Made by a program: the position numbers and the translations under genes. Positions 32,766 to 34,874 of a DNA stretch of 64,000 nt are shown one piece after another; positions within the stretch are counted from its first letter, which is position 1; every line of letters begins with the position of its first letter. The notes below the pieces were generated by a model that did no database searches, had not been told where the DNA came from, and was given only the letters and a program-made list of their open reading frames with translations. The stretch lies in the sequence record OR352955.1; one strand, written 5' to 3'. This DNA is from Escherichia phage AV125.

Positions 32766-32790
32766 AGAGGGGGATTCCCCCTCTTCTTCC
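32766..32790 (+). terminator. Terminator hairpin after tailspike gene
   Basis: Stem AGAGGGGG / CCCCCTCT with a 3-nt loop, followed by TCTTCC. Confidence 0.45.
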
Positions 32791-32820
32791 AATAGAATGG
32801 TCTAATGATAGGAGAGATAA

Positions 32821-34845
32821 ATGAATTTAACAAGACCTAATAGTGCGATAGCCGATCTGGTAGAAGCTACTTATCGAAAACGTCGCAGCTTTGAGGCAGG
32901 TTTTACATTACGTAATTCCCGTGAAGTTTTGCTGTTAGCAGCAGAAGGGAATTATTACCAATGGAAAGGAACTTTTCCTAAAGTGGTTCCAGCAAACTCT
33001 ACGCCAGCCACCACAGGTGGTATTTCTTCCCTTGCATGGCAAAGTGTTGGGACCGCTGATGATATAGCAATTATCAATGCCAAGTTTACGGCAATGCAGC
33101 AACAAATTGATGATCTGTCGGAAACAATACCTGAAGCTGGTAAATCGGCTTATCAGATCGCACTTGATAATGGTTTTGTTGGAACAGAAGCACAGTGGCT
33201 TGCCTCTTTGAAAGGGGATACTGGTGCTCAACTTAATATTAAAGGATCATTAGCAAGTACTAGTGAACTACCATCCACAGGTAACGTTGCAGGGGATGGT
33301 TATATCGTAGGTGATGTAATCTACGCTTGGGATGGTTCTGTTTGGAAACTTATTTCTTCTCTTGGGCCAGAAGGTAAATCAGCTTACGAGGTATGGTTGG
33401 CAGATGGTAATACAGGATCTGTTTATGATTTCCTTACCTCTATAAAAGGTGATAAAGGCGATGTTGGTCCTACAGGGCCACAGGGAGCACCTGGTGTTAA
33501 CGCCAACGGTTTTGATTATCGTGGAGATTTGCCTTCTACAAGTAACTTACCACAACCTACCTCTGAAAACGTAAGCCAAGCTTATTCTATCAATGGTAAT
33601 CTTTATGTCTCTAATGGGACAGCTTGGGTCAACATGGGTAATATTGTTGGTCCTCAAGGTCCACAAGGCGAGGCAGGAAAAGACGGTCTAGATGGAACAG
33701 ATGGAGATGAAGGGAAATCTGCATATCAAAGTTGGCTGGATGCTGGTAATGAAGGGACAGAAGTAGATTTTATTGCCTCACTTAAAGGTCCAAAAGGAGA
33801 CAAGGGTGATCAAGGAGAGCGAGGTCCACAAGGTGAACTAGGTCCACAAGGACCAGTGGGTGCAACAGGATCAGGCTTAGAGATTATCGGGGTTCTGAAC
33901 AGCGAAGCTGAACTTCCTCCGACTGGAGAAGTAGGTGACGCATATAAAATTAATAATGATTTATATGTTTGGGTCCAAGATGCTACGGAATGGATGAATG
34001 TTGGCAGTCTTGGAGGAACATCAATTACAGCTAAAGGTCATGTTCCGAACAGTGAAGCTCTCCCTGTTTACAATAACTATGGTGATGCTTACTTAACTGA
34101 AGACACTAGTAATCTTTACATCTATACCTACGATCAAGACACCAATTCCGCATCTTTTGTTGACATGGGAAGTATTAAAGGCGACAAAGGTGAAAAAGGG
34201 GATAAAGGAGATAAGGGTGATCCTGGAACAAACGGAACCAACGGTACTGATGGGACCAACGGTAAGGACGGCGCACAGTGGTTTGTAGCAACAACTAATC
34301 CAGTCGCAGGAGACGGTGTTATCAATGATTACGCCTTCAATACTACCACTGGAGCAGTGTTTAAGAAAACAGATTCTTCTACGTGGACGCTTATAGGCAC
34401 TCTTCCTAGTATACCAGAAGCCCCTCAAGACGGCTTGACGTATGGTAGGTCTGATGGAAATTGGATCGAAATATCAGGATCAGATCCTACGGAAGCTATA
34501 ACACCAACTAGAGTTACAGCAGGTTTCATGGAACTTGAAACAACTACTGCCAACTCTGGAGCATCTTGGACTCCTTCTGGAACTTCCAATATGTATGTTG
34601 TTACAGTAACTGACGCTCTGACAGTTGGAGCATGGCCTGGTGTCACTGGCTCTACAAAACCTAAAGCGTTTTCAGCAATGATTTATTTGATTCAAGATAC
34701 AACGGGACACACGGTTACACTAGATGCGTCTTATGGAGCACTAAATGATACAGAAATAGCAACTACTGCTAACGCAGTAACAATTTTGCAATTAACGTAT
34801 CCTGGTGTGGGTGATATCGTGGACATGGTTGTTGTAACACGATAA
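32821..34845 (+). CDS. Tail fiber with collagen-like G-X-Y repeats
   Basis: Motif FPKVVPANSTPATTGG near the N-terminus; three GKSAY-x-WL-x-G-x-G repeats; several G-X-Y tracts (GPQGPQGEAGKDGLDGTDG; KGDKGEKGDKGDKGDPGTNGTNGTDGTNGKDG). Confidence 0.55.
   Translation: MNLTRPNSAIADLVEATYRKRRSFEAGFTLRNSREVLLLAAEGNYYQWKGTFPKVVPANSTPATTGGISSLAWQSVGTADDIAIINAKFTAMQQQIDDLSETIPEAGKSAYQIALDNGFVGTEAQWLASLKGDTGAQLNIKGSLASTSELPSTGNVAGDGYIVGDVIYAWDGSVWKLISSLGPEGKSAYEVWLADGNTGSVYDFLTSIKGDKGDVGPTGPQGAPGVNANGFDYRGDLPSTSNLPQPTSENVSQAYSINGNLYVSNGTAWVNMGNIVGPQGPQGEAGKDGLDGTDGDEGKSAYQSWLDAGNEGTEVDFIASLKGPKGDKGDQGERGPQGELGPQGPVGATGSGLEIIGVLNSEAELPPTGEVGDAYKINNDLYVWVQDATEWMNVGSLGGTSITAKGHVPNSEALPVYNNYGDAYLTEDTSNLYIYTYDQDTNSASFVDMGSIKGDKGEKGDKGDKGDPGTNGTNGTDGTNGKDGAQWFVATTNPVAGDGVINDYAFNTTTGAVFKKTDSSTWTLIGTLPSIPEAPQDGLTYGRSDGNWIEISGSDPTEAITPTRVTAGFMELETTTANSGASWTPSGTSNMYVVTVTDALTVGAWPGVTGSTKPKAFSAMIYLIQDTTGHTVTLDASYGALNDTEIATTANAVTILQLTYPGVGDIVDMVVVTR
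33448..34270 (+). repeat. Collagen-like G-X-Y triplet repeat region, coding
   Basis: Four interrupted G-X-Y tracts encoded within the 32821-34845 gene. Confidence 0.5.
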
Positions 34846-34849
34846 CAGA

Positions 34850-34874
34850 AGCCCCGAAAGGGGCTTTCTTTTTA
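34850..34874 (+). terminator. Rho-independent terminator after collagen-like fiber gene
   Basis: Stem AGCCCC / GGGGCT with loop GAAA, followed by TTCTTTTTA. Confidence 0.65.

Follow-up and report, generated by a model that had tools for sequence, protein, structure and literature searches.

Collagen-like side fibres are an already known kind of phage protein. Experiments on the Escherichia coli prophage side-tail fibres EPclA-D, from EHEC prophages, showed trimers in which a collagen triple helix is flanked by trimerization modules (Ghosh et al. 2012, PMC3368898). Non-collagen modules flank or break up their G-X-Y domains, and collagen length varies among them in steps of three residues. Fibritin (wac) of phage T4 is also a segmented trimeric fibre, with a coiled-coil shaft and a foldon at its extreme C-terminus. 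The closest described relatives of the protein analysed here are gp151 of phage phi92 and its Stephanstirmvirinae orthologs, which in BASEL phages carry the annotation "lateral tail fiber protein with type I collagen domain"; an ortholog has been named TfpM2 in a paper on Wecvirus (PMC12695924). In phi92, fibre II is unassigned, and an AF3 model of gp151 did not fit its density, which is of low resolution; the authors called the function of gp151 uncharacterised (PMC13450770).

The window analysed here comprises 64,000 nucleotides of Escherichia phage AV125 (OR352955.1). It harbors an open reading frame of 674 codons for amino acids, with exactly the limits given in an earlier, sequence-only reading, and the following elements were annotated at and around it:

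32766..32784, plus strand: GC-rich hairpin AGAGGGGG-ATT-CCCCCTCT, directly 3' of the stop codon of the upstream colanidase-like gene
32810..32814, plus strand: AGGAG ribosome-binding site, 6 nt upstream of the ATG at 32821, read in the sequence
32821..34845, plus strand: complete CDS of the segmented collagen-like tail fibre, phi92 gp151 ortholog, PHROG 15437
34848..34867, plus strand: terminator-like hairpin and T run, immediately 3' of the fibre stop codon, from the terminator scan

The upstream hairpin has too weak a T tail to be called in the terminator scan.

The product had been called a tail fibre from its sequence, and this call is upheld by the profile match, an identical annotated gene, the phi92 ortholog and the position in a fibre locus. 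It matched phrog_15437 ("tail fiber protein") end to end (E = 0, 1337.6 bits, aa 1-674 against profile positions 1-655 of 656). Seventy phage records matched the gene, and the protein has the same sequence (100% identity) as the "putative tail fiber protein" annotated in Escherichia phage vB_EcoM-Ro121lw (Phapecoctavirus; MH160766). Compared with the window, only the fibre gene is identical in MH160766, the flanks being 96-99.6% identical and the downstream gene different. PHI92_gene_151 is the ortholog in the phi92 clade (full-length, 59.5% amino acid identity); the gp151-type orthologs in general are full-length, with 59-60% identity to the phi92 clade. The fibre gene lies downstream of a colanidase-like spike, as PHROG 15437 membership predicts and as in the gp151-type orthologs, and the order colanidase-like spike, fibre gene, further fibre gene is common to the window, MH160766 and JohannJBalmer; the coordinates of phi92 gene 151 agree with this position. 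No virion proteomics for the protein was found in the accessible literature. The fibre is already catalogued, and nothing in it is surprising in kind.

We consider it likely that this protein is a side (lateral) fibre of a phAPEC8-like myophage, most probably a homotrimer built like beads on a string, for which a layout and a mechanism are proposed here. The layout reads N-coil-A-B-A-c6-B-c8-A-c10-B-B-c11-(B?)-foldon-Cterm, where c denotes a collagen-like tract with its number of triplets and A and B are two repeated modules. The shaft had previously been described as segmented, and the AF2 model agrees, showing folded modules that alternate with G-X-Y tracts. A simple alternation of G-X-Y tracts with GKSAY modules had also been proposed; both elements are real, but their order is A-B-A-c6-B-c8-A-c10-B-B-c11.

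Module A comprises 27 residues and corresponds to the GKSAY repeat, the string itself starting at aa 107, 185 and 298:

33136..33216, plus strand: module A1 (GKSAYQIALDNGFVGTEAQWLASLKG), aa 106-132, helix-turn-helix in the AF2 model (helices 110-116 and 123-130)
33370..33450, plus strand: module A2, aa 184-210, from motif, pairwise alignment, HMM and AF2 model
33709..33789, plus strand: module A3, aa 297-323, from motif, pairwise alignment, HMM and AF2 model

The GKSAY-x-WL pattern proposed before is exact in copies 2 and 3, whereas in copy 1 I-A-L replaces x-W-L and a W stands where the pattern has F. Aligned locally in pairs, the A modules scored 71-103, against approximately 19-20 ± 4-5 for shuffled sequences (z = 10.8, 14.9 and 19.4), and the observed score was reached by 0 of 500 shuffles, so the three copies stand as a significant internal repeat. 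In the AF2 single-chain model the module folds as two short helices. Against Pfam, all matches of module A were below threshold (DUF2934, E = 0.002 and 18.2 bits for a cut-off of 22; Mtd_N, E = 0.37), while consensus and profile searches of the PDB returned chance or marginal local matches to antibody frameworks and DARPin ankyrin consensus sequences.

A second repeat, overlooked in the earlier reading, is a beta module of approximately 45 residues (module B) with four clear copies:

33232..33366, plus strand: module B1, aa 138-182, four beta-strands in the model; HMM
33508..33645, plus strand: module B2, aa 230-275, from pairwise alignment, HMM and AF2 model
33874..34014, plus strand: module B3, aa 352-398, from pairwise alignment, HMM and model
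34021..34179, plus strand: module B4, aa 401-453, with an insertion in the third hairpin, from pairwise alignment, HMM and model
34273..34407, plus strand: possible degenerate fifth B-like module, aa 485-529, four-strand pattern with pLDDT of about 80

Pairwise z-scores among the B copies ranged from 4.8 to 12.8 against composition-preserving shuffles, and B1 was recovered with independent E-values of 3e-22 (seed profile) and 1e-16 (family profile). In the AF2 model of B3-B4 (pLDDT 85.5) the module consists of four strands. The segment at aa 485-529 aligned with the B copies at z = 6.7, against B1 only; it was missed by the B HMM and gave E = 0.052 in hhalign, so that the profile lends a fifth B module no support, and the segment is listed as possible.

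With glycine making up 13.5% of the protein, the repeats might be suspected to be a chance or low-complexity effect. This reading is already refuted, and we give it practically no weight, considering the z-scores of both modules (10.8-19.4 for A, 4.8-12.8 for B) against shuffles that preserve composition, the confident predicted folds, and the occurrence of the modules elsewhere: their profiles found 588 A and 505 B copies across 120 relatives, and the collagen-free A-B-A segment matched 7,498 protein cluster representatives.

No family in Pfam or NCBIfam was found above threshold for either module, the collagen-like adhesin models of NCBIfam being far under their cut-offs, and no description of A or B was found in the Pfam version used or in the searchable literature. 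Literature searches for GKSAY-type motif strings returned nothing relevant, and those combining phAPEC8 with collagen returned nothing. Consensus and profile searches of module B against the PDB gave chance-level or marginal matches to phiKZ gp184 (E = 0.001) and JBD30 DUF2793. The suggestion that B is the repeat unit of the triple beta-helix in the Pseudomonas phage Pa223 spike is unsupported, as the B3-B4 model fails to match PDB 9ny6. A likeness to the trimerization domains of collagen XV/XVIII (multiplexins; PDB 3n3f and 9bnb) shows no sign of common descent and is regarded as analogy only, owing to the low Z and 10-17% identity.

The tracts between the modules are four and short (18-33 residues), compared to one or two long collagen domains (27-322 residues) in EPclA-D:

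33448..33501, plus strand: G-X-Y tract 1, 6 triplets, aa 210-227, length invariant across orthologs
33649..33720, plus strand: G-X-Y tract 2, 8 triplets, aa 277-300, 5-11 triplets in orthologs
33787..33876, plus strand: G-X-Y tract 3, 10 triplets, aa 323-352, 8-10 triplets in orthologs
34180..34278, plus strand: G-X-Y tract 4, 11 triplets, aa 454-486, approximately 3-13 triplets in orthologs

Tract 2 continues in register into the GKS of module A3, and the DNA coding for tract 4 consists of 9-nt tandem repeats. G-X-Y runs of at least three comprise 35 triplets in the fibre, whereas 2000 shuffles gave 4.2 on average and never more than 19. At the canonical rise of 0.29 nm per residue, these 35 triplets by themselves would span about 30 nm. 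Pfam Collagen (PF01391) matched uninterrupted runs in three stretches with 46.4 bits, against a cut-off of 27.2. Charged residues are abundant in the tracts and proline is scarce. Their pLDDT was below 50 in the AF2 monomer model, as expected of a lone chain.

Across orthologs the module order is fixed (A-B-A-c-B-c-A-c-B-B-c-foldon-Cterm), and the gp151-type proteins differ from the fibre studied here only in point substitutions and in the lengths of tracts 2-4, which vary by whole triplets, all indels being multiples of three residues. The repeat array had been proposed as a hotspot for length variation; this holds for tracts 2-4 but not for the number of GKSAY modules: of the relatives listed, all 19 complete sequences that are at least 56% identical have three. 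Just two single GenBank records depart from this number. The SKA64 record shows an apparent duplication of A1 with module precision (78 nt), together with two G-run frameshifts, and the EP57 record an apparent in-frame deletion of 486 nt, which would remove 162 residues of the shaft; no microhomology longer than 5 nt was found at the EP57 deletion junction, and a 5-nt match lies off the junction. In more distant proteins the counts range widely, from 0 to 21 A and from 0 to 11 B modules.

This wide variation in copy number among phages, together with the aromatic residues (Y, W) conserved in each B, is in line with a reading in which B (and perhaps A) would be more than a structural spacer, namely a low-affinity glycan-binding unit, so that the shaft in its entirety would bind surface polysaccharides as a multivalent adhesin. 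We regard this as improbable. The near-invariant G, L-P, W and G positions resemble fold-determining core and turn residues, no carbohydrate-binding family was matched in Pfam or NCBIfam, and the modules are among the better-conserved parts of the orthologs, where indels and domain swaps fall instead in the collagen tracts and the C-terminus. The preferred reading of A and B is that of structural nodes in a trimeric shaft.

As for their origin, the earlier suggestion that the shaft was built by internal duplication is not borne out as a local or recent event: module copies share 37-63% amino acid identity, and DNA repeats are confined to the G-X-Y codons. A recent local duplication at the DNA level was rejected, as the copies lack DNA similarity over the module length; outside the G-X-Y codons there are chance-level short pairs, such as the 14-nt GGTAAATC(G/A)GCTTA that opens A1 and A2. 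Shuffling of modules is just as possible an origin, given that A and B turn up in thousands of further proteins.

The shaft is preceded by two N-terminal elements, neither of which was included in the earlier reading:

32854..33051, plus strand: tailspike-type N-terminal domain, Pfam Tail_spike_N (PF18668), aa 12-77
33061..33126, plus strand: single long predicted helix, aa 81-102, from the AF2 model

Both the domain model and the fold identify aa 12-77 as PF18668. The N-terminal domains of the CBA120 tailspikes TSP1/3/4 and of G7C gp63.1 match this region clearly in sequence and fold, although those proteins run on into enzymatic beta-helix or esterase bodies, whereas the fibre continues into a shaft of collagen tracts and modules. 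The predicted helix is likely to form a short coiled coil.

Two further elements that the earlier reading did not mention lie beyond the last collagen tract:

34408..34476, plus strand: foldon-like segment PSIPEAPQDGLTYGRSDGNWIEI, aa 530-552, predicted beta-hairpin with strands 541-544 and 547-550 (AF2)
34495..34842, plus strand: C-terminal beta-sandwich domain, aa 559-674, AF2 pLDDT of about 88; phrog_4549

The foldon-like segment shares 13 of 22 residues (59%) with the T4 fibritin foldon, including the conserved IPEAPxDGxxYxRxDGxW signature, and the model places a beta-hairpin at 541-550. In phmmer searches of the PDB it matched foldon fusion constructs (E = 0.003-0.007). Pfam gave no match, PF07921 (Fibritin_C) included, for aa 485-674 even at E-values up to 10, and precomputed PF07921 matches are present in the relatives P0016 and P0020-27. 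Unlike the fibritin foldon, the segment lies within the chain (aa 530-552 of 674), being followed by a domain of 120 residues, and the shaft before it is collagen instead of coiled coil. The non-collagen parts of EPclA-D (PfN, PCoil, Pf2 and PfC) are unrelated to PF18668, modules A and B, the foldon-like hairpin and the C-terminal domain found here.

A foldon-like motif of the kind carried by the T4 fibritin whiskers raises the question of where the fibre is mounted. It could be a trimeric fibre on the neck or capsid, not the baseplate, acting as a whisker or head spike in reversible first contact or in regulating other fibres; the misfit of phi92 gp151 with the fibre II density (PMC13450770) is in line with this. 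We nevertheless think such a mounting unlikely. PF18668 is the N-terminal type of tailspikes in branched receptor-binding complexes, unlike the asymmetric N-terminal segment through which Pa223 gp52 (PDB 9ny6; 11-13% identity, without collagen tracts) is attached to the capsid, and the lack of a match between the B3-B4 model and Pa223 confines any similarity to part of the protein. In both genera the gene lies within the lateral fibre locus, with the colanidase spike and another fibre gene on either side. Finally, the PHROG matches bearing a functional label are nearly all tail, the single exception being a weak one (phrog_19200, "head and packaging", E = 9.8e-15).

The C-terminal domain shares 41-52% identity with fibre C-termini of other coliphages and of Klebsiella phages, and it matches the C-terminus of 9cuy_g, a 793-aa putative tail fibre of phiTE (E = 4e-8). 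In the relatives P0015-P0027 it is swapped for other C-terminal regions. It is a candidate for the distal, receptor-facing end.

For the side fibre favoured here, we propose that the PF18668 domain and the short coiled coil would dock the fibre onto the baseplate, or onto an adjacent fibre or spike. The shaft would then consist of four short collagen-like triple helices (6-11 triplets) between small folded nodes of two kinds, the 27-residue helix-turn-helix A and the ~45-residue four-stranded B, with the foldon-like hairpin coming after the final collagen tract and the C-terminal beta-sandwich at the distal end as the best candidate for contact with the cell surface. The trimer is suggested by the collagen tracts, the foldon-like motif and an N-terminal domain of the type found in trimeric tailspikes of solved structure, and we likewise infer where the fibre attaches, that the nodes set the register and that the C-terminus binds the receptor: nodes and hairpin may keep the three chains in register, allowing each short collagen segment to zip up. 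As all elements begin and end on glycine, triplets and whole modules could be gained or lost in frame, which would alter the length of the fibre while leaving the rest undisturbed.

More tentatively, A and B together may represent a very widespread kit of "registration nodes" with three-fold symmetry, which phages could join in frame to collagen triplets to tune fibre length and flexibility, although we think this idea less likely than not. If so, the SKA64 duplication of A1 and the 162-residue deletion in EP57 could be live examples, and the resemblance of B to multiplexin domains would be a common answer to the problem of how short triple helices are nucleated.

Phages of the phi92/phAPEC8 type are used in phage therapy and biocontrol. 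The gene is part of their multi-fibre adsorption apparatus, likened to a "Swiss army knife", and gp151 is one unplaced candidate in the assignment of genes to fibres in this group. The domain map, comprising an anchor, a shaft grammar, a foldon-like nucleus and a distal domain, guides the choice of cut and swap sites for structural and engineering groups: shaft length can probably be altered in steps of triplets or modules, and the C-terminal domain is an exchangeable end. With no family model found for A and B, which are present in thousands of phage fibre proteins, naming these units would improve the annotation of many fibres now listed as "hypothetical".

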